IMG/VR virus record: IMGVR_UViG_2585427635_000006
Strand: one strand, 5' to 3'
Length of the DNA stretch: 64,000 bases
DNA from: an uncultured virus (IMG/VR IMGVR_UViG_2585427635_000006)
Taxonomy: Duplodnaviria; Heunggongvirae; Uroviricota; Caudoviricetes
In this document: one piece after another, positions 232 through 64,000 of the stretch
Layout of the letters: every line of letters begins with the position of its first letter
Position numbering within the stretch: the first letter of the stretch is position 1
Position numbers and translations under genes: made by a program
The notes under the pieces: model-generated
Database searches by the model: none
The model's input: the letters and a program-made list of their open reading frames with translations, nothing else
Told to the model about the DNA's origin: nothing

Positions 232-539
232 TGTGCTGCGCCCTGTTCATCTAGCGCAGCAAAATTAGGAAGCTTTACTGGGCGTATATCAGCGCCTGCC
301 ATGTGCAGCGACTCACCAGCGACGCGCAAACGTGCATACCAGCGCCCCACTATCGGGCGTCCAGATGCGTTGGTCACATAGCACCAGCCTTCGCTGTCTA
401 ACCATTTACGTTGGCCAGCACATATCTTGTAACCGGTTAGCTCGCACACTTCATTAGTGGTTAAAAATTCTGATTCTCTCGGGGCCATTTCGCCCGATTG
501 CGTGGTACCAACAAATCGGTACTTGTAGGTGTCGCTCAT
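168..539 (-). CDS. Excisionase-like protein (DUF4224-like)
   Basis: FLTTNEVCELTGYK...QRKWL...GRPIVGR motif; directly upstream of the integrase. Confidence 0.7.
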   Translation of the reverse strand: MSDTYKYRFVGTTQSGEMAPRESEFLTTNEVCELTGYKICAGQRKWLDSEGWCYVTNASGRPIVGRWYARLRVAGESLHMAGADIRPVKLPNFAALDEQGAAQCAQNQATKIYRPRCYAVPAY

Positions 540-1954
540 CGCGTCATGGCTCCTTGTGATGTGAGTGGTTTGCCTGTTTCTCTGCGTTTCACTGCCTCTA
601 GCAGTAAATCTTGAACTTCGCGTTTAGATTCACGGCGGGCCATCACTAATTCATCCACCGTGCCCGCCGCCACGATGTGGTGAATAAATACAGGCCGCTT
701 ATGTCCGGCTTGCGCCTGACGTGTTGGCCCAATGCGTTCGATGATCTGCTGGTACTGCTCCAGGTCCCACCAGTGGCCGAAGAAGGCCAAAATATTTCCG
801 CCGTCTTGCAGATTTAAGCCATGACCGGCACTGGCCGGATGGGCAAATAGCACGGGAATGTTCCCCGCATTCCAATCGCGGATCGTCTCGGGGTGTTTGT
901 CCAAAGCACGCCCCTTGGGGAAGGCACGCTGCAACCGTGCGACATCACTTTTAAAGTGATACGCCACCAACACCGGCATACCGGCGGCTTCTTCGATAAT
1001 GTCGTGCAGCGCCTCTAATTTCGCATCGTGCACGACTTCCCAGGCCTGGCGTGTGTCATCGGTGTACAGCGCACCATTGGCCAGTTGCAGGCATTTTATG
1101 GTTTTACTGGCAGCGTTAAAGGCTTCTACTTCAGCACCGCATTCCAAGGCGATGAACATATCTTGTTCCATGGCCTTGTACAGACGTTGCGCATGTGCTG
1201 GCAACGCAACGCGAATCGTATTGACAATCGGCTGGCATAAATCGAAGTACGCATGTGGATCAAGTGATAAACAGATATCGCGTATCTTGTCTTGAATCTC
1301 TTGAGATGCATGTGGCGTGGGCACAAGGCGCACCGCATGCGGATCACTGCCAATCTGCATCGCACGGAACCAGCGATCGCTAAACGCTTTAAAATGAGTT
1401 CCAAGCCGTGCCCCACGATCCACCATCCACATCAGCGCCCACAGGTCCTGTAGCCCATTCGGCGCGGGCGTGCCGGTCAACCCAATGTAGCGCTCCACCT
1501 TGGTATGTACATGCGTGGCCAGTGCGCGGGCGCGCCGTGTTCCTTGCCGCAGCCGGAACCCTTTCAGCTTGGAGCACTCATCGGCGACCACCATACGGAA
1601 CGACCAACGGTCCTTGTAAAACTCCACTAACCATTTCAGATTGTCGTAATTAATGCAGTAGATATCCGCCTCCTGCTCCAAGGCGTGGCGACGTGCTGCC
1701 GCACTACCCACGACCACGGACACCCGCAGATGGCGCAAATGGGGGAACTTGGCCACCTCATCCGGCCATGTCGTGGCCGCAACGCGCAGCGGAGCAATCA
1801 CCAAAATAGGCGCAATGTCTTCCACCACCAAAAGCACATCTAACGCCGTCAGCGTGGCTACTGTCTTCCCCAAACCCATTGGCACAAACAGATTGCAGCG
1901 TGGGTGCGTCAGGATGAAATCAACGATGGTGTGTTGGTAGGGGCGCAGGTTCAT
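536..1954 (-). CDS. SNF2-family phage helicase
   Basis: LRPYQ, MGLGKT Walker A, DECS, LTGTP, GHGLNLQ motifs. Confidence 0.92.
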   Translation of the reverse strand: MNLRPYQHTIVDFILTHPRCNLFVPMGLGKTVATLTALDVLLVVEDIAPILVIAPLRVAATTWPDEVAKFPHLRHLRVSVVVGSAAARRHALEQEADIYCINYDNLKWLVEFYKDRWSFRMVVADECSKLKGFRLRQGTRRARALATHVHTKVERYIGLTGTPAPNGLQDLWALMWMVDRGARLGTHFKAFSDRWFRAMQIGSDPHAVRLVPTPHASQEIQDKIRDICLSLDPHAYFDLCQPIVNTIRVALPAHAQRLYKAMEQDMFIALECGAEVEAFNAASKTIKCLQLANGALYTDDTRQAWEVVHDAKLEALHDIIEEAAGMPVLVAYHFKSDVARLQRAFPKGRALDKHPETIRDWNAGNIPVLFAHPASAGHGLNLQDGGNILAFFGHWWDLEQYQQIIERIGPTRQAQAGHKRPVFIHHIVAAGTVDELVMARRESKREVQDLLLEAVKRRETGKPLTSQGAMTR

Positions 1955-2038
1955 GCCAACGCTCCGTGCAGCACTTCAGGATGGGCGGGAGGCGCGCTGC
2001 TATACTCGCCACCACATGGAGCTAAAGCGGGGTTATGT

Positions 2039-2422
2039 GTGACATCCGTAGCGTTCGATACGCTTAAATTTGCGAACCGGCTGAAAACGGCAGGGGTTCC
2101 TGCGGCGCACGCAGAGGCCGAAGCCGAAGCCTTGGCCGAAGTGCTAGAAATAAATTTAAAAGACCTTGCTGAGTCTGAATCTAAAAACGGTAAGGCATTA
2201 GCGCGTCTTGAAGCCGATATGAAGGAAGGCTTTGCGCAGGTGAATACGCGCTTTGAACAAATTGCTAAAGACTTTGCACAGCTGGATAAAAACATGGACC
2301 AGCGCTTCGCCCAAGTAGACCAACGCTTCGTTGAAATAAAAGGCGAAATGCTGCTACTAAAATGGATGTTCGGTGTGATCGTAACCAGCCTCATTGCACT
2401 GATCATCAAAGCGTTTTTCTGA
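2039..2422 (+). CDS. DUF1640/CCDC90-like coiled-coil protein with C-terminal TM helix (antisense moron)
   Basis: FDTLKFANRLKTAG...AEA start, heptad repeats, LKWM plus hydrophobic tail; TATACT at 2001-2006. Confidence 0.8.
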   Translation: MTSVAFDTLKFANRLKTAGVPAAHAEAEAEALAEVLEINLKDLAESESKNGKALARLEADMKEGFAQVNTRFEQIAKDFAQLDKNMDQRFAQVDQRFVEIKGEMLLLKWMFGVIVTSLIALIIKAFF

Positions 2423-2423
2423 G

Positions 2424-2702
2424 TCACGCCAGCACCTCATCCACGCCTTTTAAGGAATCGACCACGACCACGCGCTGGCCCATGCCGCGCATGCGCTCAT
2501 GCTCACGGACTTGATGCGGTGTGCACTGCTGGCCTGGGGCTTTGAGTTCCACCCACAGGGTGCGCCCCTCGGGCAGCATGGCGATGCGATCCGGCGCACC
2601 GTGGCGGCCACCCCATTTCACCTTGCGGATTTCACCGCCCTTGGCCCTGACCTGGGCCACTAAATAACGTTCGATTATCCGCTCACGGGGAATGGTCATC
2701 AT
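2424..2702 (-). CDS. VRR-NUC domain nuclease
   Basis: GAPDRI...WVELKAPG PD-(D/E)xK motif. Confidence 0.88.
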   Translation of the reverse strand: MMTIPRERIIERYLVAQVRAKGGEIRKVKWGGRHGAPDRIAMLPEGRTLWVELKAPGQQCTPHQVREHERMRGMGQRVVVVDSLKGVDEVLA

Positions 2703-4878
2703 TGCTTCCTATACCGGTGGGTTTCAAGCCTTCCGCCGCTAAGGGCAACCCCTGTGCCCAGGGTGGCGGTGTGGCCATGAGTGCGGCCAAGTGCGCGGCT
2801 TGAAAGCGGCGTTGTCATCGGCTTCGGTAATGATCTCGTCGTGCACGGTAAGCACGATGCTGTAACCGGCTGCTTCAATCGCAGGCATGCAGGCGGCCAA
2901 CACGTCACGGCTAGACGGCTTGGGTGATGTTCTCGACCAGCTTGCCGCCGTAGGTGGTGATGCGCGTCCATTTGCGCGTGATCGGATGCGTGCCCATGTA
3001 GGACAGTGCGCCGTGCTCATCGACTCTGGGAGCGGCGTAGTAAAGCACCCGCCCCGACGGCAGACGCAGACGCAGCCATGCACGGCTGTACTGCACTGTG
3101 ATACCGCAGCAGGTGTGCGCCGTTTCGGGGTGGCCGATGGCGTCTGTGACTGCGCACTGCAACGCCTGCCAAAACGCGGCAATGGCTGGATGCGCGTTGC
3201 GCCATGCGCGCTTAAACACATCGCACGCCAACCATGCGCGATCTGAGAGGCCGAAGGTGGGACGGTGGTTCGCCTTCGTCCACTGGAGCGCTTCCACGGC
3301 CTCCTGAAGCAGCAGGGGTGGTAAGGCGGCCTGCTCGGCCATCGCCTCCAAATCAATGTGATACATGGCCGCAAAGGCGGCAAAGGCCCCGACACCGCCG
3401 CCATACCCCAATGCCAATTCCTGCACTTTGCCAATCTGGCGTTGCTGCTTGGTCACGGCCTGGGGCGCTATCCCGAACGAATGGGCGTAGGCGCGCTTGT
3501 AAATGTCCTCCCCTTTGCGGATAGGCTCGTGCTCGGCATTCCATTGCAAGGTGATCGGTGCCCCGCGCAGCGCACCGTGAGTGATGGCCTCGCCGCTGTG
3601 CCATGTACCATCCACCCCTTGGCAGGTATCAAAATCACCAAACGCCTGCAGCTTGGGGGTTTCACCGGCCAGCCACGCCAACACGCGGCCTTCAATGTTG
3701 GACAGATCGGCCACGACCAGCTTTTTATGTGTTGGTGCAATCAGACAGCTGCGCAGCGCGCTGCTGGTCAGCGCCATGACATCGTCAAAGACCAAATCAA
3801 CACAACCGGCTTTCATGGCATCAATGCCAACGGCGATCACTGGCTGGCTGAGCGTGGGGCGCGGCAGGTTGTGCGGCTGAAACAACCGCCCCGCCCACCG
3901 TCCGGTGCGACTGGCCCCGTTAAATTGCAGCGTGCCGCGCAGACGGCCATCGCCACTGGTGCAGTTCAGCAGCGCCTGGTACTTAGCGGTGCTGGTGGTG
4001 CTGGCTTGCCTGCGGATGGACAGCAGTTCCCGCACCGTTTCTGGCAACAGCGGATCGTCAAGGCAACGCTCTACCGTGTGTTGCTGCATGTCCGGCAACG
4101 CCACGCCGTGCTCAGTGCTCAGGTGGTGCAACAGTGCATCGCGCTGGGTCGCCGCCTGCACCACACCTGCTGTGAGGTCACTGGTGCGCTCGGCCAGTGC
4201 TTGCTTGGCGCGTTCCACAGCGCCGATGGCTGCCTGGGCTAAGTCCGTATCGACCAAAACGCCTCGGTCATTAATAGTTTGGTCCAGAAACCACAGCGCC
4301 AGTTCCGCCCCCGTGTAGTTGTGGGACGGCAAGCGCTTCACCACGTCCCGCATGGCTGCCACATCGCGTCTGGCGTAGTCCACAAACTGCGCCCACTCGG
4401 TCGGATGGGTGTCACGTGTGGCACGGCGCAACGTGCAGTGGGTCGGGCGTGGTTTGCAAAACAGTGCAACGAGCCGTTTGCCGTCCTTGGCCTTGGCTTG
4501 CTCCACAGGAACGCGCAGCAGCTCGCATAACGTGCCTAGCGCCCCAGGCAGCGAATGGGCCAAGGCTTGGGCCATTGAATCGCGCCAGCGCTCCAAGGGG
4601 ATGTTGATGCCGCAATGGCGTAGTACGGTTCGGTCAAAATGGGAGTTGTGGAAGTACAGCAGCACCGCGGGGTTGTGCAGCGCAGCCGACAGCTCCTCAG
4701 GCATCGTTGCCGTGGCCGTGCAGTCCCACACCTGCACCGGCCCATCACCCAAGGCGTAAGCAAACAGCAACCGCTGTGCTTGCTCAGCATACGCATGCAC
4801 GCCATGCGCAATCGGTACGGGGGAGTACGTCTCTAGGTCCCCCCATAGGATGGGTGTAGGTGGCTGCGCGGTGGCCAT
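2699..4878 (-). CDS. Phage family A DNA polymerase; about three single-base indels in the last ~220 bp
   Basis: DLET exonuclease motif, DLSNIE motif [15 protein letters not shown] motif B; motif C TVHDEI lies in a shifted frame. Confidence 0.88.
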
Positions 4879-8519: not shown

Positions 8520-8714
8520 TCACAGCGCATCGCCGTCTTGCTCCAGTGCGTCACGCACCGCTTCGTAGTCTTCTAGCAAGCCTTTAAGACGCGATAACAA
8601 CTCCCTTTCCACAGGCGTAAAACGCTCCACGGCTTGCCTGGTTGTTAGGTCATTCACAAGTTCGTTATCACTCATCGAACGCATGAGTAGTGCTGTCGGC
8701 ATGGGAGGCGACAT
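8520..8714 (-). CDS. Small hypothetical phage protein
   Basis: Strong AGGAG RBS; in the early leftward operon. Confidence 0.6.
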   Translation of the reverse strand: MSPPMPTALLMRSMSDNELVNDLTTRQAVERFTPVERELLSRLKGLLEDYEAVRDALEQDGDAL

Positions 8715-8745
8715 ATAAAAACTCCTTCCCGAAACACGTTCGGGA

Positions 8746-8937
8746 TTAGTGCTTAATCAATATGGATGAAAGCGTTTTAGCGGCTTCGTAGTGCGCGCGG
8801 CGAACGCGGTAATTGGCGATGCGTAGTGCATTGGGCATTGCTCGGGTATCGCGCAAAATGCAATTGGCTAACCCAGGGTGCGCGTCGTAGTTGCAACGTG
8901 CAGCGTGTTGTTCTTTCGGTGTGCGATAGCGGTTCAT
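8746..8937 (-). CDS. Small hypothetical protein (paralog of 48687-48878)
   Basis: Near-identical 63-aa ORF in both prophages. Confidence 0.65.
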   Translation of the reverse strand: MNRYRTPKEQHAARCNYDAHPGLANCILRDTRAMPNALRIANYRVRRAHYEAAKTLSSILIKH

Positions 8938-8960
8938 CGGTAGGTTTTTCCTGTGTCAGA

Positions 8961-9152
8961 TCACGCCGCACGTGGCGGGCTGGGATGCGTGTTGTTTCGC
9001 ATCGCTTTGCGGTGGATGGCTGTGACGGCAATAACGGCTGGGAACCCAAAGCGCCGGTAGGCGTCAGACTTGGCCTCAACAGTTTTATGAAACAGGCCGG
9101 TATAGGTGTACACACCCTGCTTGGTGCGTGCGGTGATGGCGCAAGGAATCAT
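8961..9152 (-). CDS. Small hypothetical protein (paralog at 48902-49093)
   Basis: AGGAGG RBS; conserved in both prophages. Confidence 0.65.
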   Translation of the reverse strand: MIPCAITARTKQGVYTYTGLFHKTVEAKSDAYRRFGFPAVIAVTAIHRKAMRNNTHPSPPRAA

Positions 9153-9321
9153 GCGTATTCCTCCTGCATGACATCGGCGGTGTACCGTTGCTCAATCCAT
9201 TCTTTCTGGTGGGGTTTAGCGCGTTCTGCTTTGCTGTGGGAGCGTTGGCATGTTGGAGGCCAACCCCTCGGGGCGTTTATGATGGAAGTCCCAACAACCA
9301 TCAAACCCCAAGGGGCCAGCC

Positions 9322-9444
9322 ATGACTGAGAAGCGGATTTCGGATGAACAGGATTTTGATAAAAGGTCAGGCGTTCCCGTACGCGGACCAACGCAGCCTC
9401 CCCCAGCGCCCATACCCCAGCCACCACCGGCAGAAAAACAGTGA
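9322..9444 (+). CDS. 40-aa Pro-rich micro-ORF (MTEKRISDEQDFDKRSGVPVRGPTQPPPAPIPQPPPAEKQ)
   Basis: Translated by hand; AAGGGG RBS, TATGAT at 9278-9283; stops 7 nt before the next ATG. Confidence 0.55.
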   Translation: MTEKRISDEQDFDKRSGVPVRGPTQPPPAPIPQPPPAEKQ

Positions 9445-9451
9445 TGAACTC

Positions 9452-9934
9452 ATGAACACAGCAGCGCCAGAAGCACGCACTAAATATGAAGCTGAATTTG
9501 ATTTGGCGTATCACGTTCGTTTGTACGAACGGCATATCCGGTTTTATTGCAGGCTCCGCAAGCTGTTTGTTTTTTCCAGTGTCCTTGCTGGAACGGTTGC
9601 GATTGGTAATGTTGTGAGTGGATTGCCTTGGTTGGTTTCGCTGCTGAGTGTGGTTGTTGCGGTGGCTGGATTGGCTGATCTTGTCTTTGATTTGAGCAAT
9701 CAGACTGTTGCGTATGAATATCAACGTCGTAAATGCGTGGAGCTTCAGGTGGAGCAGTCGGCATTGACGTTGGAGGAGCTTGATAGCCAGATGCGGAAAA
9801 TTCTTATAGATGCCCCACCAGAAATTGAGGCACTCAGGATGCCTTCTTACAATGATGTTCTTCGCACACTCGGCCATGTTGCACGTGTGCAACTGCTTAC
9901 ACGTGTTGAACGCGTGTTGGATAAAATTGCCTGA
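9452..9934 (+). CDS. SLATT-like 2-TM protein (antisense cargo)
   Basis: N-helix, two hydrophobic segments, helical C-terminus with D.PP...AL...N.V.R also seen in the 11765-12283 protein. Confidence 0.65.
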   Translation: MNTAAPEARTKYEAEFDLAYHVRLYERHIRFYCRLRKLFVFSSVLAGTVAIGNVVSGLPWLVSLLSVVVAVAGLADLVFDLSNQTVAYEYQRRKCVELQVEQSALTLEELDSQMRKILIDAPPEIEALRMPSYNDVLRTLGHVARVQLLTRVERVLDKIA

Positions 9935-9990
9935 ATCCTTTTTATGCGGTTGTAGGCGGGGATCGTTGTAGCTGCTGTAGCCAATGCCAG

Positions 9991-10458
9991 TCATGACTCA
10001 CCTGCCTTTGGTGTAGCAGTGGCGTCAGTACGCATCTGGCCACGGACAGCGCAAACTAAATACTTCACTGTTCGATATACCGCAGCGGTGTGATTGGTGC
10101 CGAATTTAACGACCCAAGCCGCCTCGCGCGGGTGATCGTCATCTGGTGTACAGGTCCATATCCAATAGGATGGTTCCTCCCAACGCAGATAGGCAGCTGC
10201 GCCATTAGCGGATAGCGCCTCTTCCTGCGTAGGCAAGCGCCAATTGTCATAACCCCAGATGGCTAATTGGCGACATTCCTCCGCCGCATCACAATCAGGG
10301 CCGTATGCATTCGAGCTTGGGCCCCCGACATACCCAGTTAGCCACTCAAGCCCTTTATGCTCATCACGCGTGATGGCGTGGTAGCCATCGGTGTCGTAGA
10401 TTTTGGTGAACCTAGCGCCCCCTGTGGTGGGGGCGTATCCGAAGGACGCGGTGCTCAT
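9991..10458 (-). CDS. DUF1566 (Lcl C-terminal-like) protein
   Basis: GLEW...C..L...GY.NWRLPTQEE...WTCT...AWVVKF...VCAVRG motif. Confidence 0.75.
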   Translation of the reverse strand: MSTASFGYAPTTGGARFTKIYDTDGYHAITRDEHKGLEWLTGYVGGPSSNAYGPDCDAAEECRQLAIWGYDNWRLPTQEEALSANGAAAYLRWEEPSYWIWTCTPDDDHPREAAWVVKFGTNHTAAVYRTVKYLVCAVRGQMRTDATATPKAGES

Positions 10459-10877
10459 GCGGCCACCTCATCGCTTCCAGTGGCTTTAGCGAGTGAAACT
10501 CTCCGCTTAGGCATAGCCTTTATTCCATCTATAGACGGCAACGCCCGAAAGGAATCATCGTAAGCGGCACAGACTTGCCCATATTGCGGATGGCTACTAT
10601 CAACAATGAAGTAATGGCAACTCCTGTCTTCGCTATCAAAGCGAACGACGAAGCAGCGGCACACCAAATCACTAAACAGTGGCAGCGGGCGATCAAGGCA
10701 GCTTACCTTGATCGCTGAGTTAGGATCGTGTGGTGATACCAAGGAGTAGATAGCGCGTTGCAACCCCGCGCCTTCCTCATCCCTGATGCCGTCCCAGTAG
10801 AACAGCGGCGCTTTTTGAGTCCCTGATAAGGCCTTGCTAGCCTGAGGCTGGGCTTGCTCGCTAACGTTTAATGTCAT
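10455..10877 (-). CDS. First gene of the early leftward operon, hypothetical
   Basis: AAGGAG RBS; shares PLF..GI.D..G..LQ with 49956-50489. Confidence 0.65.
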   Translation of the reverse strand: MTLNVSEQAQPQASKALSGTQKAPLFYWDGIRDEEGAGLQRAIYSLVSPHDPNSAIKVSCLDRPLPLFSDLVCRCFVVRFDSEDRSCHYFIVDSSHPQYGQVCAAYDDSFRALPSIDGIKAMPKRRVSLAKATGSDEVAA

Positions 10878-11128: not shown

Positions 11129-11536
11129 TTAAGGCTGCTTAGCCGCCTGCGGTGGTGGCTGCAATGCCTGAGCAGGAAGTTGGATGATGATGGGAGCGGA
11201 CTGAGCCGGTAACGCTTGATAGCTCCCCTTAATGCTGCTGACCACGAAGCCGCCAACACCAAGAATGCCTGCAAAAAGGGCTAATACCGTAGCGAGCATC
11301 CATGTCCGGTTTTCTTTTTGAGCCTTCTCGAAATCAGCACGCATCTCACCCGCCGACTTGTTTAAGTCAGCCAGTAGTTCACCTGCCGACTTGTTTAAGT
11401 CAGCCCGCAAGCTTTCAACATCGGCCTTGGTGGCAAGTGTGGGGATGATGGTTTCAAGTTGAACTATACGTGCTTCCATGCTGGCATCATGGGACAGATT
11501 GCCGTCGCCCGCAAGTGATGGACTTTCCCGCGTCAA
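11129..11536 (-). CDS. Coiled-coil protein with TM helix and Pro-rich tail (CCDC90/DUF1640-like)
   Basis: LATKADV, two 11-aa ADLNKSAGE repeats, TWMLATVLALF TM helix. Confidence 0.7.
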   Translation of the reverse strand: MTRESPSLAGDGNLSHDASMEARIVQLETIIPTLATKADVESLRADLNKSAGELLADLNKSAGEMRADFEKAQKENRTWMLATVLALFAGILGVGGFVVSSIKGSYQALPAQSAPIIIQLPAQALQPPPQAAKQP

Positions 11537-11764: not shown

Positions 11765-12283
11765 TTATGCATTTCCCCACGTCAGCCACTGAGCCGTAAC
11801 ACGCTTGAACCAGGGCAGTTTGTGCGATGGATGGTCCTTTAGATGGGCGTAAGATCGCGTCACCTGGTTCTCACACAAAATAGCCAAGGCAACAAAGATA
11901 GGAGGCTCATCGCTTTCTATCTCCAGGCGCTGTGCAGTCCAGGCAGAAACTTGTTCTTGCGTTGCGTCTGGGTGCTTAACGATGTCGGACTCAAGTTGAG
12001 AGAAGCGGCGGCGTAGGTCGCTATGGATACGGGCCATCTGTGCCGTTCCAGCCACCAGGTTAATACTGGTGGTGATGGTGACAGTGACTGCTCCGGCAAC
12101 AGCCATCCACTCTGCTGTGTACTTGCCGAACGAAGCAATGACGGCGGAAGCGCCCAATAGACCGATAAAAGAACTCAGCGTGTTACAGCGGTCGAAGAAC
12201 GCCATACGGCAGGAATGATAGCGCTGTGACTTCTGGACTCCCCACAAGAGTTCCCATTGCTTGGTATGCAATTCGGTATCCAT
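11765..12283 (-). CDS. SLATT-like 2-TM protein downstream of cI
   Basis: Two TM helices flanked by helical regions; near-identical copy at 52066-52605. Confidence 0.7.
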   Translation of the reverse strand: MDTELHTKQWELLWGVQKSQRYHSCRMAFFDRCNTLSSFIGLLGASAVIASFGKYTAEWMAVAGAVTVTITTSINLVAGTAQMARIHSDLRRRFSQLESDIVKHPDATQEQVSAWTAQRLEIESDEPPIFVALAILCENQVTRSYAHLKDHPSHKLPWFKRVTAQWLTWGNA

Positions 12284-12337: not shown

Positions 12338-13042
12338 TTACTCCACCCACCTAGCGATCCACCTGACCCTGCCAATAATCTTAATTGGGTAATCCGGATC
12401 GTCTTTCCAGCGGGGTAACCGCCAACCATGATCTCCGTCAGGATTATCGGCAGCAAAAAAGACCTGTTTACTACCGTTGTCCTTAATAAGGATGCATCGC
12501 TTAACGTTGTACTCATCAGCGGCGGCACCTTGGGTGACAATCACATAGATGTGCTTGTCATGGGGCGTAGTGTCTGATGTGTCAAACATAATGGCGTCCC
12601 CAGATTCAATGTTGGGGAGCATGGAATCGCCGGTACCATGCATGATGACAAGGTTCTTTGAGTTCAGATGATGCTTATTTAATGAATCCTTGCGGAATTT
12701 AAAGATTTGGGTATCCACATTCCCCGCAATCTCTGGCCCCGTAGTGCCTAGGCCCATGCATTGGTCGTATGCCACCACAGGGGCCCACGGGTCGTCATCC
12801 GCCAAATTTGGTTCTGATTGAGATTGCTTTGGGTTTTTCTTGGGAAGCTTTCCAGAGGTAATCCATTCCATCCTTACACCGAAATGTGTAGCCCATTTTT
12901 CAATAAATTCAGGATTCGGCTTTACATTGTGACCGTTCTCCAGCCTCCAGACGTACTGTTTGCTGGTTCCTGCGATAGCTGCGAAGGTCGGTTGATCCAT
13001 CGCTGCTTCAATTCTTAATTCTCTGAGTCTTCCACCAATCAT
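12338..13042 (-). CDS. CI-like repressor (HTH plus S24 peptidase)
   Basis: N-terminal HTH; GDSM serine and VKR lysine; IIGRV end; divergent from cro. Confidence 0.9.
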   Translation of the reverse strand: MIGGRLRELRIEAAMDQPTFAAIAGTSKQYVWRLENGHNVKPNPEFIEKWATHFGVRMEWITSGKLPKKNPKQSQSEPNLADDDPWAPVVAYDQCMGLGTTGPEIAGNVDTQIFKFRKDSLNKHHLNSKNLVIMHGTGDSMLPNIESGDAIMFDTSDTTPHDKHIYVIVTQGAAADEYNVKRCILIKDNGSKQVFFAADNPDGDHGWRLPRWKDDPDYPIKIIGRVRWIARWVE

Positions 13043-13106
13043 GTTAACTATGATTGACTTAAATTGGTAAATCATGGTTGATTAACCCATGTAAATTATG
13101 ATTTAC
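13043..13106. promoter_or_regulatory. Three OR operators (16-bp imperfect palindromes, 24-bp period)
   Basis: GTTAACTATGATTGAC 13043, GTAAATCATGGTTGAT 13067, GTAAATTATGATTTAC 13091. Confidence 0.8.
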
Positions 13107-30133: not shown

Positions 30134-30409
30134 TTACACATGAAGGCGCGTGATCTTCGGGCGTGGCTGCTGACTAGCAACCCACAGGTCATACTTGAAC
30201 TGCATGGCTGCCCACATCTCTGCACTGGTGCCAAGCGCATCTTCCAGGCGAAGGGCCATATCGGCAGAGATGCCATTGGTACCATTGAGAATACGCGACA
30301 AAGCCACACGGCTGACGCCTAGCTTTGCAGCCGCATTGGTCACAGTGAGCTCACCAAGATACTCACGCAACACTTCACCTGGATGTGCGGGATTGTGCAT
30401 ACGTTTCAT
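30134..30409 (-). CDS. higA: HigA-family antitoxin
   Basis: HPGEVLRE...A.KLGVSR..LSRILNG...ISADMALRL. Confidence 0.92.
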   Translation of the reverse strand: MKRMHNPAHPGEVLREYLGELTVTNAAAKLGVSRVALSRILNGTNGISADMALRLEDALGTSAEMWAAMQFKYDLWVASQQPRPKITRLHV

Positions 30410-30419
30410 CGTGTGTTTC

Positions 30420-30701
30420 CTAGTGATAATCCTGATAGTCGACCAAGATTGCGTCTTCGCCTTCAAAAGCAAACGTGAGGCGATAGTTGCCATTCACCCA
30501 GATGGACCAATGACCTTTTAAGTCAGCGCCTTTTAGTGGGTGCAGTTTCCAGCCTGGAGCATTCATATCTTCGGGGCGCTTGGCACTCTCCAACGCGGTG
30601 AGCTGGATACGCAGTTTGGCGGCGTGTTTGGTTTGGATACCAGCGGTTGATCCCACAAGGAAAAATTGTTGAATGCCTTTGTGGCGGAAACTTTTGATCA
30701 T
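30420..30701 (-). CDS. higB: HigB/RelE-family toxin
   Basis: MIKSFRHKG...LHPLKG...WSI.VNGNYRLTF...DYQDYH; toxin-first order. Confidence 0.92.
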   Translation of the reverse strand: MIKSFRHKGIQQFFLVGSTAGIQTKHAAKLRIQLTALESAKRPEDMNAPGWKLHPLKGADLKGHWSIWVNGNYRLTFAFEGEDAILVDYQDYH

Positions 30702-30711
30702 CAAGCGGCCA

Positions 30712-30735
30712 GTATACCGTAAATGATCGGTATAC
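30712..30735. promoter_or_regulatory. Palindromic higBA operator
   Basis: GTATACCG-N8-CGGTATAC directly upstream of higB. Confidence 0.65.
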
Positions 30736-30898
30736 AGCCAGAGGTAGTTATAACCAGTCGAACCCACATTAAAATATTGAACAAATGTTCCATATCATGT
30801 CCGCATCATGCGTTGCATATATCGGTAACCGATAAAAGAAACGCTAAGGAAAACCCGCCACAGGACACCGCCCAGTGAGTCCCCCCAAGCTGCTGAGC

Positions 30899-36459: not shown

Positions 36460-38668
36460 AAAACAATTCCACGCAAGCCTCATCATTGCTGGGCACCTGT
36501 CCAGCACATTGAAAAGCGCCTTCGGGTCCACACAGCGCAACGTACAACGTATTGGTGCGGCGGTCACCACACTCTCGCGGCAGCAACGTCTGCTCGGGCA
36601 AGGCATTCAAACCTTTGGGCGCATGGGTCGTAATATTGACGGGCTGCGCACCCGATATGACACATTAACCAGACAATTAGAACGCACCCGCGCCGCGCAA
36701 CAGCGACTCAACCAAGCACAATCGGCCCTTGAAGGACACCGCGCCCGCCTTTCACAGATGCGCGGACAGCTTGGGGGCGCCGTAGGGACCTTGGGTGCCG
36801 TCTCTGCCGCCGCGTTTTTTCCCATCAAGGCCGCCGTTGAGTTTGAAACCGCCATGCTTGGCATTGCCAAGCAAGTCGATGGCGCACGCGACAATACCGG
36901 CAAGTTGACCTCCGTGTACTACGACATGGGCAACGCCATCCAGCAGCTCGCGCGTACGATCCCGATGGCCACCAATGAACTGGCTGACATGGTGACCGCC
37001 GGTGCCCGTATGGGCATTGCCGAAGGCATGAACCCAGAACAGGCAAGAAAAACACTGATCGAATTTACCCGCGTCTCGGCCATGGCGGCCACCGCCTTTG
37101 AGATGCCTGCTGGTGAATTGGCCGACAACATGGGAAAAATCGCTGGTATTTTCAAAATCCCGATCAGCGACATTGAGCGTTTGGGCGACGCCATCAACTA
37201 CCTGGATGACAACGCCATCTCTAAAGGGGGTGACATCATCAAAGTGATGCAGGGCGACCTGGCCGGAGCAGCCTCCACCATGGGCTTATCGGCCAAAAAT
37301 GCCGCCGCCCTGGCGTCCACCTTCCTCACCTTGGGTGAATCCGCCGAACGCGCTGATACCGCGGCCTCTGGAATGCTACGGCAATTACAAATTGCCAAAA
37401 TGAACCCCAAACGCTTCCAGATCGGCGTGGGGATGTTGGGCATGACCGCTGACCAACTCCAAAAAGGCATGGTCACCGATCCCCAGTCCATGATTCTGGA
37501 CGTCCTCACACGCATTAAAAAACTCCCAGTCGAACAGCAAATGGAGGCCGTCACACGCCTGTTCGGCAAAGACTGGGGCGGGGCCATCGCCAAGCTTGCG
37601 AACGGCGTTGATGAATACCGCCGCCAACTGGCGCTGGCCAACGGAGAAGCCGCCAAAGGCAGCATGTCGCGGGAATTCAAATCTTGGCAGGACTCCACAG
37701 CAGGGCAATGGCAACAGACAAAAAATCGCCTCACCGAGCTTTCCGTAGCCATTGGTAACGCCTTACTGCCTGCTATCAACGACTTGCTAGCGTCCTCGGC
37801 TCCGGTCATTGAGCGATTTGCAGCATGGACACAAAAACATCCTGGCGTAGTGAAAGCGGTGCTGGGAACCGCCCTGGCCCTGGCCGGTGTCAGAGTCGCC
37901 GTCATCGCCCTGCGCTTTGCCTTTGCCGCCCTTCACTATCCCCTGTTGCTCGGACTACGCCTGATCGCCTCGTGGCGGGCTGTTGGCACCTTGGCTTCTA
38001 TGGCCCAAGTACGCACTGCGGCGCTGGCCGTGGGGCGTGTGTTAGGCCGCCTCGTCCCCACCGCTTTCATGGTGGCTGGCCGTGCCGCATTGTGGTTGGG
38101 CCGCCTCTTGCTCATGAATCCGGTGGGATTGGCCGTCACCGCCATTGCTTCAGGCGCGTTGCTGATCGTCCAACACTGGAACACCATCAAACCGTTCATG
38201 AATTCTCTATGGGAAGGGGTTAAAACGATCTTCAGCGGTGCCTGGGGAGTGATTACAGGCCTCTTCACCGGCAATTTCGACCGTGTGAAGAACGGATTCA
38301 AAACCATGTTTGATGGCATCGGCACCATTGCCACCTCCTTCTTCGACAAGCTCAAATCACTATGGAATTGGGCCACCGAAAAATTCACCACAATGAAACA
38401 ATGGTTAGGCATCGGCGACAGCCTGACCCAACACACCATGACTACCGCAGGTGCAGGCGCAGCCCCCACAGCAACGGTGCGCATGCCGCCATTGGCGCAA
38501 CAACATAGGCCAAATAACGCCGATTACCGTAGCTACGCCACCTACAACATCACCCAACAACCGGGTGAACGTGGCGAAACCCTAGCACGCCGCATCGCCG
38601 CACAATCCAGCCAATCACAGAGGCAACCACGCAGCGCCCTGTACGACGATGTCAGAGGCCAAGAATGA
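36449..38668 (+). CDS. Tape measure protein
   Basis: Long Ala/Gly-rich helical protein with TP901-like core (A..FE.AM..., LFGK). Confidence 0.92.
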   Translation: MASKKQFHASLIIAGHLSSTLKSAFGSTQRNVQRIGAAVTTLSRQQRLLGQGIQTFGRMGRNIDGLRTRYDTLTRQLERTRAAQQRLNQAQSALEGHRARLSQMRGQLGGAVGTLGAVSAAAFFPIKAAVEFETAMLGIAKQVDGARDNTGKLTSVYYDMGNAIQQLARTIPMATNELADMVTAGARMGIAEGMNPEQARKTLIEFTRVSAMAATAFEMPAGELADNMGKIAGIFKIPISDIERLGDAINYLDDNAISKGGDIIKVMQGDLAGAASTMGLSAKNAAALASTFLTLGESAERADTAASGMLRQLQIAKMNPKRFQIGVGMLGMTADQLQKGMVTDPQSMILDVLTRIKKLPVEQQMEAVTRLFGKDWGGAIAKLANGVDEYRRQLALANGEAAKGSMSREFKSWQDSTAGQWQQTKNRLTELSVAIGNALLPAINDLLASSAPVIERFAAWTQKHPGVVKAVLGTALALAGVRVAVIALRFAFAALHYPLLLGLRLIASWRAVGTLASMAQVRTAALAVGRVLGRLVPTAFMVAGRAALWLGRLLLMNPVGLAVTAIASGALLIVQHWNTIKPFMNSLWEGVKTIFSGAWGVITGLFTGNFDRVKNGFKTMFDGIGTIATSFFDKLKSLWNWATEKFTTMKQWLGIGDSLTQHTMTTAGAGAAPTATVRMPPLAQQHRPNNADYRSYATYNITQQPGERGETLARRIAAQSSQSQRQPRSALYDDVRGQE

Positions 38669-48686: not shown

Positions 48687-48878
48687 TTAGTGCTTGATCA
48701 GGGTTGAAGAAAGCGTTTTAGCGGCTTCGTAGTGCGCGCGACGAACGCGGTAATTGGCGATGCGTAGTGCATTGGGCATTGCTCGGGTATCGCGCAAAAT
48801 GCAGTGGGCTAACCCAGGGTGCGCGTCGTAATTGCAACGTGCAGCGTGTTGTTCTTTCGGTGTGCGATAGCGGTTCAT
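48687..48878 (-). CDS. Small hypothetical protein (paralog of 8746-8937)
   Basis: Near identity to the prophage 1 copy. Confidence 0.65.
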   Translation of the reverse strand: MNRYRTPKEQHAARCNYDAHPGLAHCILRDTRAMPNALRIANYRVRRAHYEAAKTLSSTLIKH

Positions 48879-48901
48879 GAGTAGGGTTTTCCTGTGTCAG
48901 A

Positions 48902-49093
48902 TCACGCCGCACGTGGCGGGCTGGGATGCGTGTTGTTTCGCATCGCTTTGCGGTGAATGGCTGTGACGGCAATAACGGCTGGGAATCCAAAGCGCCGGTA
49001 GGCGTCAGACTTCGCCTCAACAGTTTTATGAAACAGGCCGGTATAGGTGTACACACCCTGCTTGGTGCGTGCGGTGATGGCGCAAGGAATCAT
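48902..49093 (-). CDS. Small hypothetical protein (paralog of 8961-9152)
   Basis: Identical MIPCAITAR... ORF. Confidence 0.65.
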   Translation of the reverse strand: MIPCAITARTKQGVYTYTGLFHKTVEAKSDAYRRFGFPAVIAVTAIHRKAMRNNTHPSPPRAA

Positions 49094-49491
49094 GCGTATT
49101 CCTCCTGCATGGCATCGCTCCACATCGCGTGAAAGCATTCTGATTCGCGGCGCATTTCTTCCTTGACGTCCTGCGCAGCAAGGATGCGCAGTTGTTCCAT
49201 GCGTGCGAGTCCTTGCACTTCGGCCAGTGCGTAAAGACGGGCTAATACATCGCTGTCGCTTAACTGATCCGAAGGCAGGGCATGTAAATCCGCTAAAACG
49301 ATTTCCATCTCTTTGTAATGGGCCTCCGATAACGTACCGGCCACCCATTCATCGGCTTCTTCGATTTTTTCTGGGTCGCTTAAATAGTCTTGAACGCGAG
49401 CATTAACCCGTTCTGCGAAATACTCTTTAGCATCGTCTTGCGGTGGTTGCAGGCGTGGGTCGTTGTAGCTGCTGTAGCCAATGCCAGTCAT
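49090..49491 (-). CDS. Acidic hypothetical phage protein
   Basis: Coupled ORF; its ends match those of ORF 9149-9994. Confidence 0.72.
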   Translation of the reverse strand: MTGIGYSSYNDPRLQPPQDDAKEYFAERVNARVQDYLSDPEKIEEADEWVAGTLSEAHYKEMEIVLADLHALPSDQLSDSDVLARLYALAEVQGLARMEQLRILAAQDVKEEMRRESECFHAMWSDAMQEEYA

Positions 49492-49959
49492 GACGCACCT
49501 GCCTTTGGTGTAGCAGTGGCATCAGTACGCATCTGGCCCGCGCACAGCGCGGACGTGAAGCCATCTACGGCGGTCTTCTATTCTTTTATTGCCAGTACCG
49601 AACTCAAAAGCCCATGCTTTGGTTTCCGGTTCTTTTTTGCACGGGGTGCAGGTCCAGAACCACTTTTCATTAGCAGGCCAACAGGTATCTACGAGGCCAA
49701 TAGACATCGCCTCTTCAATCTCAGGCACCCGCCAATCTGTGTGCCCACCGAGGGTTAACTCGCGGCAAACCTTTTTCGCTCCTGATCTTCTAAGCAGGTT
49801 CCCGAATCCTGCGGCGTGGCGGCTATCAAGGGCGTGTGCTGTCCACTCAAGCCCTTTATGCTCATCACGCGTAATGATGTGGTTGCCGTCTTCGTCGTAG
49901 ATTTTGGTGAACCTAGCGCCCCCTGGGGTGGGGGCGTATCCGAAGGACGCGGTGATCAT
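49488..49959 (-). CDS. DUF1566-like protein; apparent extra base near 49538 truncates the tail
   Basis: GLEW, DWRVP.IEE, WTCT, AW..F, VRAVRG; the paralog's tail QMRTDATATPKAG lies in a shifted frame. Confidence 0.72.
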
Positions 49960-50758: not shown

Positions 50759-51199
50759 TTAAGGCTGCTTAGCCGCCTGCGGTGGCGGCTGCAATGCCTG
50801 AGCAGGAAGTTGGATGATGATGGGAGCGGACTGAGCCGGTAACGCTTGATAGCTCCCCTTGATGCTGCTGACCACGAAGCCACCAACACCAAGAATGCCT
50901 GCGAAAAGGGCTAATACCGTGGCGAGCATCCATGTCCGATTTTCTTTTTGAGCCTTCTCGAAATCAGCACGCAACTCACCCGCCGACTTGTTTAAGTCTG
51001 CCCGCAATTCACCGGCTGACTTGTTTAAGTCGGCCAGTAGTTCACCCGCCGACTTGTTTAAGTCAGCCCGCAAGCTTTCAACATCGGCCTTGGTGGCAAG
51101 TGTGGGGATGATGGTTTCAAGTTGAACTATACGTGCTTCCATGCTGGCATCATGGGACAGATTGCCGTCGCCCGCAAGTGATGAACTTTCCAGCGTCAA
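50759..51199 (-). CDS. Coiled-coil/TM protein (paralog of 11129-11536) with three 11-aa repeats
   Basis: Direct comparison with the prophage 1 copy. Confidence 0.72.
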   Translation of the reverse strand: MTLESSSLAGDGNLSHDASMEARIVQLETIIPTLATKADVESLRADLNKSAGELLADLNKSAGELRADLNKSAGELRADFEKAQKENRTWMLATVLALFAGILGVGGFVVSSIKGSYQALPAQSAPIIIQLPAQALQPPPQAAKQP

Positions 51200-51387: not shown

Positions 51388-51756
51388 TTATAAAAGCGAT
51401 TGGTCATTGGCATCTTGACGCACAGCGGCCAATTGCTTGAGCAACTCTGGGAGCGCTGATTGCACGGTATCCCACACCACGTCAAGGTTAATTTCAAAGT
51501 AGCCATGAGCGATGCGATTACGCATGCCGCGCATACTCCGCCAAGGTACCTGATCATGTGCCTGGGTAAACTCGGCATAGCGATCCATCACCTTTGTGAC
51601 GGCTTCACCAATGATAATAAGGCTCATGATGACGGCTTGCTGGGTTCGTTTGTCCTCAAGAAAATCCTCTTTGGCCAAACCTTCCACAAAACTACACGCA
51701 TCTGTGGCGGCCTGCTGCATGTGCTCAAGGTAATCAGGAAGTCTATTCCCACTCAT
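51388..51756 (-). CDS. HEPN (DUF86/HepT) RNase toxin
   Basis: IIGEA, PWR.MRGMRNRIAHGY (RX4H motif). Confidence 0.92.
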   Translation of the reverse strand: MSGNRLPDYLEHMQQAATDACSFVEGLAKEDFLEDKRTQQAVIMSLIIIGEAVTKVMDRYAEFTQAHDQVPWRSMRGMRNRIAHGYFEINLDVVWDTVQSALPELLKQLAAVRQDANDQSLL

Positions 51757-52043
51757 ATTGGCTGCGCTTCCGCGAGCACCTTCGCCCGGAACTTAAGCGG
51801 CAGATCGCCTGACGTTAGTACATCGACGTCAACGCCGAGTAACGATTTCAGTTCTTCTTCAAGATCGCCTAGGTCGAACAGTGTCGCACCAGGCAATGCA
51901 TCCACCAGCAGATCAATGTCGCTGCCGTCGTGGTCAGTGCCATGTAGCACCGAACCGAAAACACGCGGGTTAGCGGCGCGGAAGCGGCCTACCGCTTCAC
52001 GCACTGCGGTGCGCTTCATCTCAAGTGCAACAGAGGGGCGCAT
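51753..52043 (-). CDS. MNT nucleotidyltransferase antitoxin
   Basis: FGS...G.D...SDIDLLV motif; coupled to HEPN. Confidence 0.92.
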   Translation of the reverse strand: MRPSVALEMKRTAVREAVGRFRAANPRVFGSVLHGTDHDGSDIDLLVDALPGATLFDLGDLEEELKSLLGVDVDVLTSGDLPLKFRAKVLAEAQPI

Positions 52044-52065
52044 GGTGATCGTTCCTCATCGCAAG

Positions 52066-52605
52066 TTATGCATTTCCCCACGTCAGCCACTGAGCCGTAA
52101 CACGCTTGAACCAGGGCAGTTTGTGCGATGGGTGGTCCTTTAGATGGGCATAAGATCGCGTCACCTGGTTCTCACACAAAATATCCAAGGCAACAAAGAT
52201 AGGAGGCTCATCGCTTTCTATCTCCAGACGCTGTGCAGTCCAGGCAGAAACTTGTTCTTGCGTTGCGTCTGGATGCTTGACGATATCGGACTCAAGTTGA
52301 GAGAAGCGGCGGCGTAGGTCGCTATGGATACGGGCCATCTGTGCCGTTCCAGCCACCAGATTAATACTAGTGGCGATGGTGACGGTGACTGCTCCGGCAA
52401 CAGCCATCCACTCCACTGTGTACTTGCCGAACGAAGCAATGACGGCGGAAGCGCCCAATAGACCGATAAAAGAACTCAGCGTGTTACAGCGGTCAAAGAA
52501 CGCCATACGGCAGGAGTGATAGCGCTGTGACTTCTGGACTCCCCACAAGAGTTCCCATCGCTTGGTATGCAATTCGGTATTTTTGGTGTCCATGTCCAAT
52601 AGCAT
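52066..52605 (-). CDS. SLATT-like 2-TM protein (paralog of 11765-12283)
   Basis: Near-identical sequence. Confidence 0.7.
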   Translation of the reverse strand: MLLDMDTKNTELHTKRWELLWGVQKSQRYHSCRMAFFDRCNTLSSFIGLLGASAVIASFGKYTVEWMAVAGAVTVTIATSINLVAGTAQMARIHSDLRRRFSQLESDIVKHPDATQEQVSAWTAQRLEIESDEPPIFVALDILCENQVTRSYAHLKDHPSHKLPWFKRVTAQWLTWGNA

Positions 52606-62621: not shown

Positions 62622-64000
62622 ACAGGCCATTGATCAAGCGGTGATCAAGGCTAGGTGCGAAGCAGATCATTTATTTTTCACGCGGTATTTTTTCAAACAG
62701 CGTCAGCAACTGCGGTTTAGGGTGAATTGGCACCATCAGGTGATTGCTGGGGTGGTGGACGATGTGATTGCAGGGCGGCGCAAGGATGTGGTGATTAATG
62801 TGCCTCCTGGGTCGTCGAAAACGGAGCTTGTGGCAATTAATTTGATGGCGCGTGGGTTGGCGCTGAATCCGTATGCGCGGTTTTTGCATATTAGTTATTC
62901 GGATGATTTGGCGCTGCTGAATTCAGAGACGGCGCGGGAGATTGTGCAGTCTGATGAGTATCGTGCGTTGTGGCCGTTGGAGATTGCCGATGATGCCAAG
63001 TCAAAGAAGCGTTGGAATGTGGTGGTGGATGGTAAGAAAGCCGGTGGGGTGTATGCGGTGAGTCTGGGGGGACAGGTGACGGGGTTTCGTGCCGGACACA
63101 TGGCCCCGGGATGGCAGGGGGCGATCATTATTGATGACCCGCTGAAGGTGGAAGATGCCTACAGCAAGACCGGACGCAGTAAGGCCAACCGTAAGCTGGT
63201 GTCCACGGTGAAGAGTCGTAAAGCCAGTCCGGACACACCAATTATTGTGATTATGCAACGTTTGGCGCAAGACGATCCGACGGGGTTCATCCAGTCTGGG
63301 GGATTCCCGGGGGCGTGGGAGTGTATTGAGATTCCTGCATTGATTGATGATGCCTACGTGTCCGGTTTGCCGGAGCAGGTGCAAGGGCAGGTGGTGCGTG
63401 ATGTGCAGGACCAGGACGGACGCTACAGCTACTGGCCGTACAAAGAACCGTTAGCTGAGTTGCTGGCGTTGGAAGCCACGGATCGTTATGTGTTCAGCGG
63501 TCAATATCAGCAGCGGCCCAGTCCGCTGGGCGCTGGGATCATCAAAGGGGATCAATTTGGGCGCTATACGGTGCTGCCGCGCATTCTCTCGCGCACGGTG
63601 TATGGCGATACGGCGCAGAAGACGGCTGAGCGCAATGATTACAGCGTCTTCCAACTGTGGGGGCTGGGAGAGGACAAGCGTATCTATCTGTTGGACATGA
63701 TTCGCGGCAAGTGGGAAGCGCCGGAACTCAAGCGGCGGGCGATTGATTTTTGGAATGCGCATCGCGCCTACGACCATAAGGTATCGGCTCCGATCCGTCA
63801 GATGAAGATTGAGGACAAATCTAGCGGCACGGGCTTAATTCAGGACATTGCCAGAGGTGGCGCTGGTCAGGGGCGTATTCCGGTGACTGGGATTGCACGG
63901 GTGACCGACAAGCTCACACGGGTGATGGATGTGGTGTCCTACATCGATGCGGGATGGGTGGTGATTCCAGAGCAGGCGGGGTGGGTGAAGGATTTTGTGG
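62572..64000 (+). CDS. Terminase large subunit (partial, runs off the window)
   Basis: Hand translation: [41 protein letters not shown]. Confidence 0.9.

Follow-up and report, generated by a model that had tools for sequence, protein, structure and literature searches.

The 64,000-nucleotide stretch of viral DNA analysed here, which we call the window (IMG/VR record IMGVR_UViG_2585427635_000006), contains two prophages of Xylella fastidiosa, both mosaic and Xfas53-like, which lie at about 0.2-40 kb and 41-63 kb and are 82-96% identical in the patches common to both. This report concerns a 281-codon open reading frame (ORF) carried on the minus strand of the first prophage, at 9149..9994, which we call the bridge ORF: it belongs to an early operon, and it stays open across a small cassette whose own gene, the cargo gene, is read from the opposite strand. 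A megablast search with positions 8700-10500 returned Xylella phage Xfas53 records only (three of three matches). Both prophages show the same order on the minus strand, a CI-like repressor gene followed by a gene of the family phrog_11791 and then by minus-strand genes in a long chain, which in the first prophage includes the bridge ORF and ends in a replication module encoding a DUF2800 nuclease, DNA polymerase A, a VRR-NUC nuclease and an SNF2 helicase.

The bridge ORF and the cassette it spans

The bridge ORF begins MTGIGYSSYNDPRLQP and ends MQEEYA, exactly as does the 133-amino-acid ORF at 49090..49491 in the second prophage, with which it has its first 16 and last 6 residues in common. 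The latter is an intact gene of the family phrog_14373 and serves as our reference for the replaced gene. The bridge ORF itself matches phrog_14373 over profile positions 1-34 of 133 only (E 1.4e-8), far short of a full-length match; Pfam, NCBIfam and PADLOC gave no family match for it, and PHROGs matched residues 1-34 only. At the DNA level the two prophages are homologous on either side of this region (8746-9176 with 48687-49117, 96.1%; 9948-10052 with 49445-49550, 92.5%), and between the two blocks 771 nucleotides (nt; 9177-9947) replace 327 nt of the other copy. The difference of 444 nt equals 3 x 148, and the phase is kept. The signals of the old gene are present at both ends: AGGTGAG at -9 to -3 of the bridge start, ATGA stop/start overlaps with the upstream gene (9991-9994) and with the downstream gene (9149-9152), and AGGAGG before the downstream gene. 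With a start overlap upstream, a stop overlap downstream and a Shine-Dalgarno motif, the bridge ORF has the sequence marks of a coupled operon ORF. Over its span the three minus-strand frames contain 0 (internal), 10 and 8 stops.

Contigs from run X4, which represents a further strain, match up to 9176 and 9948 and then diverge into a third allele, indicating that the cassette junctions are recurrent mosaic breakpoints. Since recombination at conserved gene ends swapped the interior of the gene, the 4-nt overlaps were inherited from the gene that was replaced and need no special selection. The feature in need of explanation is therefore the open, in-phase frame, and not the overlaps. The features are collected in Table 1.

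The cargo protein belongs to phrog_11791 (E 2.7e-17, residues 9-143) and has 304 relatives in a library of 1.8 billion proteins, mostly stand-alone proteins of about 155-165 amino acids. One cargo allele, the protein P0002, is 82% identical to it. Its AlphaFold model (mean predicted local distance difference test score, pLDDT, 95.5) is all-helical; its helices 11-56 and 59-79 cover the hydrophobic stretch, and four more come after them. There was no match for it among solved structures at E 0.001 or better, nor in PADLOC or NCBIfam. Pfam SLATT_1-6 gave no match at E up to 10, and DUF4231, which we take to be a member of the SLATT clan, gave E 0.19. Among 90 relatives of the cargo protein, DUF4231 was matched by two (best E 0.006) and SLATT_1-6 by none. 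The nearest ESM Atlas cluster carries an automatic SLATT name (score 0.96), which we treat as a lead only. No SMODS or SLOG partner lies beside the cargo gene, the cassette consisting of the 40-codon ORF and the cargo gene only. Compared with the related locus L011, the cargo gene carries 9 synonymous and 7 non-synonymous differences and is under mild purifying selection; the 40-codon ORF, which may encode a leader peptide, carries 1 and 8 in its plus frame and is not. A scan for the sigma-70 consensus detected no promoter upstream of 9322, and a weak -35/-10-like pair (TTGGAG-19 nt-TATGAT, 9253-9283) was noted by eye only. A terminator scan found no such site inside 9149-9994. A metagenome scan yielded no further homologues of the cassette; a class-wide genome search found them in 5 of 399 genomes, in uninformative contexts, and homologues from high-GC genera were equally uninformative. 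Contigs from RNA libraries (three runs of one study) cover 8804-10017, but such contigs carry no strand, ends or level and may stem from DNA carry-over, and no expression claim is made from them.

Much of this anatomy had been proposed in a sequence-only reading of the locus, which described ends matching the 133-amino-acid gene, a middle that is the reverse complement of a plus-strand peptide and cassette, 4-nt overlaps with both neighbours, and some 23 leucine and 9 serine codons, in register, that never use TTA, CTA or TCA. This anatomy was confirmed throughout: the shared termini are borne out by the DNA homology reaching to 9176 and resuming at 9948, both plus-strand ORFs were found, the two overlaps are in place, and the codon counts are exactly 23 and 9, with none of the three codons among them. 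The name SLATT-like given to the cargo was not confirmed by Pfam, and we use it for a resemblance, not for family membership.

Table 1. Features of the bridge ORF, of the second bridge and of their prophage setting (window coordinates)
Feature	Position	Strand	Remarks
Bridge ORF, 281 codons	9149..9994	-	annotated XF_2517 in strain 9a5c
Retained 5' end, 16 codons of phrog_14373-type gene	9948..9994	-	Shine-Dalgarno-like AGGTGAG; ATGA overlap with upstream gene
Retained 3' end, last 8 codons and stop of phrog_14373-type gene	9149..9176	-	AGGAGG Shine-Dalgarno; ATGA overlap with downstream gene
77-nt stretch	9177..9253	.	absent from the second prophage's copy and from the G011 cassette; lies within the open bridge frame
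Mobile cassette	9254..9940	+	79% identical to the G011 copy
40-codon ORF	9322..9444	+	AAGGGG Shine-Dalgarno-like motif; not conserved as protein
Cargo gene, 160-amino-acid all-helical protein with hydrophobic helical hairpin	9452..9934	+	phrog_11791
Upstream operon gene	9991..10458	-	Lcl_C domain, phrog_16004
Downstream operon gene, 63 amino acids	8961..9152	-	phrog_18388
Intact phrog_14373 gene, 133 amino acids	49090..49491	-	second prophage; E 4.7e-83, profile positions 1-133; reference for replaced gene
Second bridge ORF, 158 codons	1951..2427	-	GTGA overlap with VRR-NUC gene 2424..2702; ATGA overlap with SNF2 helicase gene 536..1954
Second antisense cargo gene, DUF1640/CCDC90-like, C-terminal hydrophobic helix	2036..2422	+	phrog_6701 E 4e-39; Pfam E 1e-4; GTG start by eye
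CI-like repressor, first prophage	12338..13075	-	
Paralogue of cargo gene	11765..12283	-	phrog_11791, E 1.5e-69; just downstream of CI-like repressor; co-directional with operon; codon control
phrog_11791 paralogue, second prophage	52066-52605	-	directly downstream of repressor-region gene

Codon usage of the cargo gene and fate of the frame in relatives

The codons of the bridge ORF coincide with those of the cargo gene on the other strand (9994-9934 = 60), and the total absence of TTA, CTA and TCA was set against several baselines. In 78 genes of the window these three make up 19.4% of all leucine and serine codons, and a beta-binomial model gives P = 0.0016 for none in 32. The G+C content at third codon positions (GC3) of the cargo gene is 0.44, and the rate in window genes with GC3 below 0.5 is 0.26. 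Among window genes with at least 10 leucine and serine codons none is at zero, the lowest being 3 of 67. As a genus baseline for codon usage we took G011, a sister-species Xylella genome, in which 400 kb sampled evenly contained only one ORF free of the three codons among 222 with at least 25 leucine plus serine codons. Genes of the same family that run co-directionally with their operon have 4, 5, 5 and 3 such codons, and a member with GC3 0.37 has 11; the paralogue at 11765..12283 has 4 in its 29 leucine and serine codons. The open frame is thus rarer than codon usage predicts. Two other causes were tried and rejected. A high-GC donor is ruled out by the GC3 of 0.44 and by the common occurrence of A-ending codons (28 of 159). 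General avoidance of the TA dinucleotide is ruled out as well, the TA rho of 0.50 lying at the 15th percentile of window stretches; in the cargo gene TA occurs eight times at codon junctions and once at codon positions 2-3. With one third allowed for the phase, we estimate the chance level of this single event at about 2e-4 to 5e-3, a range that leaves the selection bias of the finding unaccounted.

The 281-codon frame is intact in all five X. fastidiosa variants seen. They include XF_2517 of strain 9a5c (88% amino-acid identity) and the three of three IMG/VR loci that bear the cassette, which are 93-97% identical over about 1.3 kb with no indels. Read in the bridge frame against L011, the counts of synonymous and non-synonymous differences are 3/8 over 9152-9253 (which includes 9177..9253), 2/9 over 9323-9451 and 1/15 over the cargo gene, all of them small counts. 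In the inherited N-terminus (about 20 codons) the same minus frame gives 7/2 against L011 and 6/1 against L009. Outside this N-terminus the bridge product is without protein-level constraint and does not qualify as a functional overlapping gene, as would fit a frame whose openness is all that matters. The conservation of the N-terminus was probably imported by recombination with intact phrog_14373 alleles.

The only copy of the cassette found outside X. fastidiosa is that of G011 (L007 1136-1818, corresponding to window positions 9254-9940), and it is again antisense. There it follows the homologue of phrog_18388, in the place where the second prophage of the window has a phrog_16070 gene; two different slots of one operon have therefore carried the cassette. 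The phrog_14373 homologue of G011 covers profile positions 8-106 of 133. The G011 cargo gene has decayed (a TAA and a 1-nt deletion). The two species differ by two more indels, 2 nt and 1 nt long, which add up to 3 nt, and G011's own frame is open between them; this pair is compatible with a formerly continuous frame in G011, without being proof of one.

A second bridge in the same operon and cases in other phages

The same operon contains a second ORF of this kind, at 1951..2427, which is coupled to both of its neighbours and runs across an antisense DUF1640/CCDC90-like gene. A GGAG motif precedes the helicase gene downstream of it, and searches gave no family match for the ORF itself. Annotators have disagreed about the strand: the Xfas53 record GQ421471 lists the minus ORF (gp05), and record MT084350 lists the plus ORF. 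All 20 Xylella-type loci compared have the upstream overlap, and 19 have the downstream one, the last locus being cut. The gp05-type ORF comes in 13 lengths, from 125 to 299 amino acids, the 299-residue forms crossing two tandem cargo genes, and the same doubly coupled arrangement occurs in L049 (GC 0.61). In this second bridge the two frames are offset, and operon-strand stops arise only at tyrosine codons, or at histidine and glutamine codons that follow a T-ending codon. In two Xylella-type contigs (L047 156-1225 and L048 1839-3001) a phrog_11791-like gene is followed at once by a DUF1640-like gene in the same direction, which means that the two cargo types of the window can also travel together.

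Long ORFs over plus-strand genes inside minus-strand early operons were also seen in unrelated low-GC phage contigs. L038 (GC 0.41) has four DUF1640 genes (CCDC90-like, E 1e-6 to 3e-8), all in one frame and antisense, between a Rha-like and an SSB gene. A 500-codon ORF (L038 2095-3597, also in L039-L042) covers the four genes, their three spacers and about 250 nt more, and the operon-strand frames contain 0, 56 and 62 stops. The Rha stop is followed 11 nt later by an ATG in the frame of this ORF, accompanied by a GGAG motif, and 19 nt separate the end of the ORF from the SSB start. With local codon usage as the model, the probability of an open frame is 6e-4 for the four genes alone and about 1e-4 for the 131 codons outside them. 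In L042, which has 16 gap positions, the frame is still open, over 515 codons. In L033 a 310-codon ORF (2401-3333) covers one DUF1640 and one DUF1902 gene and terminates right at the next ATG, with 0, 23 and 21 stops in the three frames. L025 and L027 count as counter-examples, their ORF crossing the cargo gene and meeting neither neighbour.

A synonymous test was applied to DUF1640 genes, in which the expectation is the share of T-ending codons at non-risk sites of the same genes. The antisense-embedded genes (20 loci) have 128 stop-prone codon pairs, at which 44.4 stops were expected and 5 were seen; the other DUF1640 genes (9 loci) have 55 such pairs, with 18.9 stops expected and 11 seen. 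All five stops of the embedded group fall in L051 and L056, both of which are without a spanning ORF. With each lineage represented by a single row (L013, L049, L027, L033, L038 and L053), 16.7 stops were expected and none was seen.

Elsewhere in the two prophages, the phrog_11791 paralogues follow the repressor region in the position that rexAB occupies in lambda. Their place right behind the repressor in both prophages suggests that they are expressed in the lysogen and may serve exclusion or abortive defence. In the second prophage only, a toxin-antitoxin pair of a HepT-like RNase and an MNT nucleotidyltransferase (51388-52043, minus) separates the paralogue from the operon gene that follows; the first prophage has none. 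The homologous genes at 11129-11536 and 50759-51199 (both minus) encode 135 and 146 amino acids and differ in how many copies of an 'ADLNKSAGEL'-type repeat they have. The DNA polymerase A gene of the first prophage (within 2702-4878, minus) has three 1-nt indels relative to Xfas53 and other relatives, at about 2726, 2800 and 2913, and its 3' end is split across frames; either this prophage is decaying or these are assembly errors. Two putative ORFs of 127 and 108 codons, at 63001-63384 and 63451-63777 (both minus), are without TTA, CTA and TCA and without a Pfam or PHROG match.

Competing explanations and known systems

We propose that recombination would have placed a promoter-bearing cassette, made up of a leader ORF and the gene for a small two-helix membrane protein, in reverse inside a small gene of the early operon that carries the replication module in an Xfas53-like prophage of Xylella; the cargo is probably made in the lysogen. 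The insertion would have kept the ribosome-binding site, start, stop and 4-nt overlaps of the replaced gene, and the surviving variant would be one in which the operon-strand frame is open across the whole insert. After induction, ribosomes entering at the old start would translate a meaningless polypeptide of 281 residues and stop where the next gene starts. By covering the operon RNA, this translation may allow escape from Rho-type polarity, or from pairing with antisense RNA, upstream of the polymerase, nuclease and helicase genes. Selection, or a filter at insertion, for a frame that would matter only by being translatable is the best reading of the depleted codons, of the second bridge with its two couplings and of the extreme frames in L038 and L033, and we put its probability at about one half. 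The anti-polarity mechanism is a further step that we infer from what is known of Rho and NusG; at this locus it is supported only by the absent terminator and by a local C-rich patch in the operon RNA.

A number of observations weigh against selection for an open frame, and many of them would be expected if the bridge were a shadow ORF that arose by chance, through a swap at conserved gene ends that happened to leave the frame in phase and stop-free and that nothing has maintained since. In any gene, the antisense frame that lies in register is the one least prone to stops, and long shadow frames without a bridging role exist elsewhere in the window, of 305 codons (3325-4239), 244 codons (37201-37932) and, on the plus strand over the HepT/MNT pair, 227 codons (51460-52143). 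Stretches free of the three codons are not exceptional within genes, amounting to 3.3% of 160-codon windows in the genes of the window and 4.6% in G011, and to 1.5% of 229-codon windows in G011. Over 9276-9437 two of the three minus frames are open anyway, so the bridge adds little there. The cargo gene also lacks GTA (0 of 20 valine codons) and CGA/AGA (0 of 14 arginine codons), for which antisense stops offer no explanation and which hint at a codon bias unrelated to the bridge. Since the finding was picked for its open frame, the true chance level must lie above the stated P values. Frame retention in homologues was a check named by the sequence-only reading. The frame has stayed intact in X. 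fastidiosa, but its copies share one insertion. Only about 5% of all random changes, and 7.8% of synonymous ones (27 of 346 possible in the cargo gene), would create an operon-strand stop; with so few, this intactness is weak evidence (by our estimate the probability of no stop is about 0.1-0.3), and a population test of stop avoidance had too little power. In the decayed G011 copy the operon-strand frame has a CTA-derived, in-register stop and other breaks besides, and is cut into pieces of 126 and 108 codons. The three polymerase indels, for their part, mean that present-day selection on the copy in the first prophage may be relaxed. The DUF1640 evidence has weaknesses of its own: in 28 of 30 loci one antisense frame is stop-free within the gene whatever the context, a consequence of a composition with no tyrosine and few glutamine and histidine codons that leaves the favourable frame nearly open by itself, and the co-directional copies in L032, L047 and L048 show 0 stops too. 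The embedded and other groups of the synonymous test were moreover drawn from ORF maps after the spanning ORFs were known, relatives in them are not independent, and L053 is ambiguous downstream. Chance nevertheless sits badly with the complete depletion in 32 leucine and serine codons (P 0.0016, 1 of 222 ORFs, to which the phase adds a factor of one third) at a GC3 that predicts more TTA, CTA and TCA, not fewer, and with a second doubly coupled bridge in the same operon. The contrasts in L038, where the spacers alone give about 1e-4, and in L033 are beyond chance, so that bridging exists somewhere, and we regard luck as an unlikely, if serious, explanation of the present locus.

Translation of the frame might also be kept for reasons other than Rho polarity, namely coupling to the next gene, stabilisation of the mRNA or blocking of its pairing with the cargo mRNA. 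Both bridges have 4-nt stop/start overlaps at both ends, and the cargo and operon transcripts would be fully complementary over about 0.7 kb. The excess of C over G on the operon strand does not set bridged cargo apart: it is high only locally (9500-9800; about 2.4 at 9600-9799, from a skew of +0.41), and C-rich, rut-like operon RNA failed as a discriminator, the whole-cargo C/G of 1.0-1.17 being the same in bridged and unbridged cargo, which is also a point against the anti-polarity account. The downstream genes, however, have strong Shine-Dalgarno motifs of their own (AGGAGG and GGAG), so coupling is not obviously needed, and taken together we consider these alternatives improbable. Hardest to sustain is the view that the 281-residue product and gp05 are functional proteins, each forming a true antisense overlapping pair with its cargo gene. 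Their starts, Shine-Dalgarno motifs and operon positions are like those of ordinary genes, gp05 and XF_2517 have both been annotated, and exclusion genes expressed in the lysogen are reported to lie antisense over an early lytic gene in Pseudomonas phage Fc02 (PMC9936078). Yet the excess of non-synonymous differences outside the inherited N-terminus, the lack of any match in Pfam, NCBIfam, PADLOC or, beyond residues 1-34, PHROGs, a biased composition that is set by the cargo strand, and the variable length of gp05-type ORFs make this view very improbable.

The sequence-only reading, in which selection keeps the frame open, is partly supported. The depletion and the recurrence of the architecture at a second cargo gene and in unrelated contigs favour selection, or a filter at insertion, for translatability. 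Three loci without a bridge speak against a general rule. One is a higBA-like pair, recognised from its translations only (30134-30767, minus), inside the plus-strand late tail/baseplate operon, which no ORF spans and whose plus frames hold 20, 7 and 8 stops. The other two are L051 and L056, classed as embedded and unbridged, with 5 stops against 5.6 expected. We advance the general form only tentatively, at somewhat less than even odds: backwards cargo in phage early operons would persist only if the operon strand is open and coupled, which would shape the synonymous codons of the cargo. In register, such cargo would be free of TTA, CTA and TCA; in the shifted register, codons ending in T would be missing before CA, and codons ending in T or C before TA. 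The long, functionless 'bridge' polypeptides would be raw material for new genes. Candidates come from at least three unrelated lineages, the Xfas53-like prophages of Xylella (with two cargo types), the GC-41% L038 group and L033.

If this reading is true, there would be a rule, readable from sequence, for inserting accessory or defence genes against the direction of an essential phage operon, and it would explain why annotators disagree about strand, both for gp05 and the plus ORF of MT084350 and for XF_2517 and a plus-strand hypothetical protein. It would define a class of ORFs selected for translation but not for encoding anything. Synonymous sites of such cargo genes would not be neutral, and protection of operon transcripts from polarity by translation, a link long assumed, would become a directly testable constraint on mosaic phage evolution.

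A full-text literature search turned up no account of an ORF that is kept open over antisense cargo, nor of such an ORF as a remedy for polarity. The cargo protein itself, as modelled, is like the SLATT proteins (SMODS and SLOG-associating 2TM effectors) in its size of about 160 amino acids, its long helix, its hydrophobic helical hairpin and its C-terminal helices, and unlike them in having no Pfam SLATT match and no SMODS or SLOG partner gene. Morons are autonomous cargo genes with their own promoter and terminator that sit between phage genes. The cassette resembles them as a small accessory element, variably present among mosaic relatives and found in two slots in two Xylella species; it differs in lying antisense to the operon, inside a gene rather than between genes, with no terminator-like site and no consensus promoter found by scan.

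Shadow ORFs are long open frames that lie antisense to real genes and share their codon register (PMC3454372). The bridge is like them in being the codon-on-codon reverse complement of a real gene, so that stops can come only from TTA, CTA and TCA. Unlike them, it has an inherited, coupled start and stop, it spans non-coding parts, and its cargo strand has fewer stop-forming codons than the genome baseline. The nearest precedent we found is the antisense overlap in Pseudomonas phage Fc02, where the exclusion genes olg1 and olg2, expressed in the lysogen, are reported to lie antisense to gene 10 of the early lytic operon (PMC9936078). There too a temperate phage has lysogen genes on one strand and an early lytic operon ORF over them on the other. 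In Fc02, by contrast, both products have reported exclusion activity, and the abstract of that paper proposes no bridging or anti-polarity role. Transcriptional polarity, finally, is the proposed reason why an untranslated insert of 0.77 kb would silence the replication genes downstream, Rho with NusG being reported to end untranslated transcripts, antisense RNAs included (PMC11551753).

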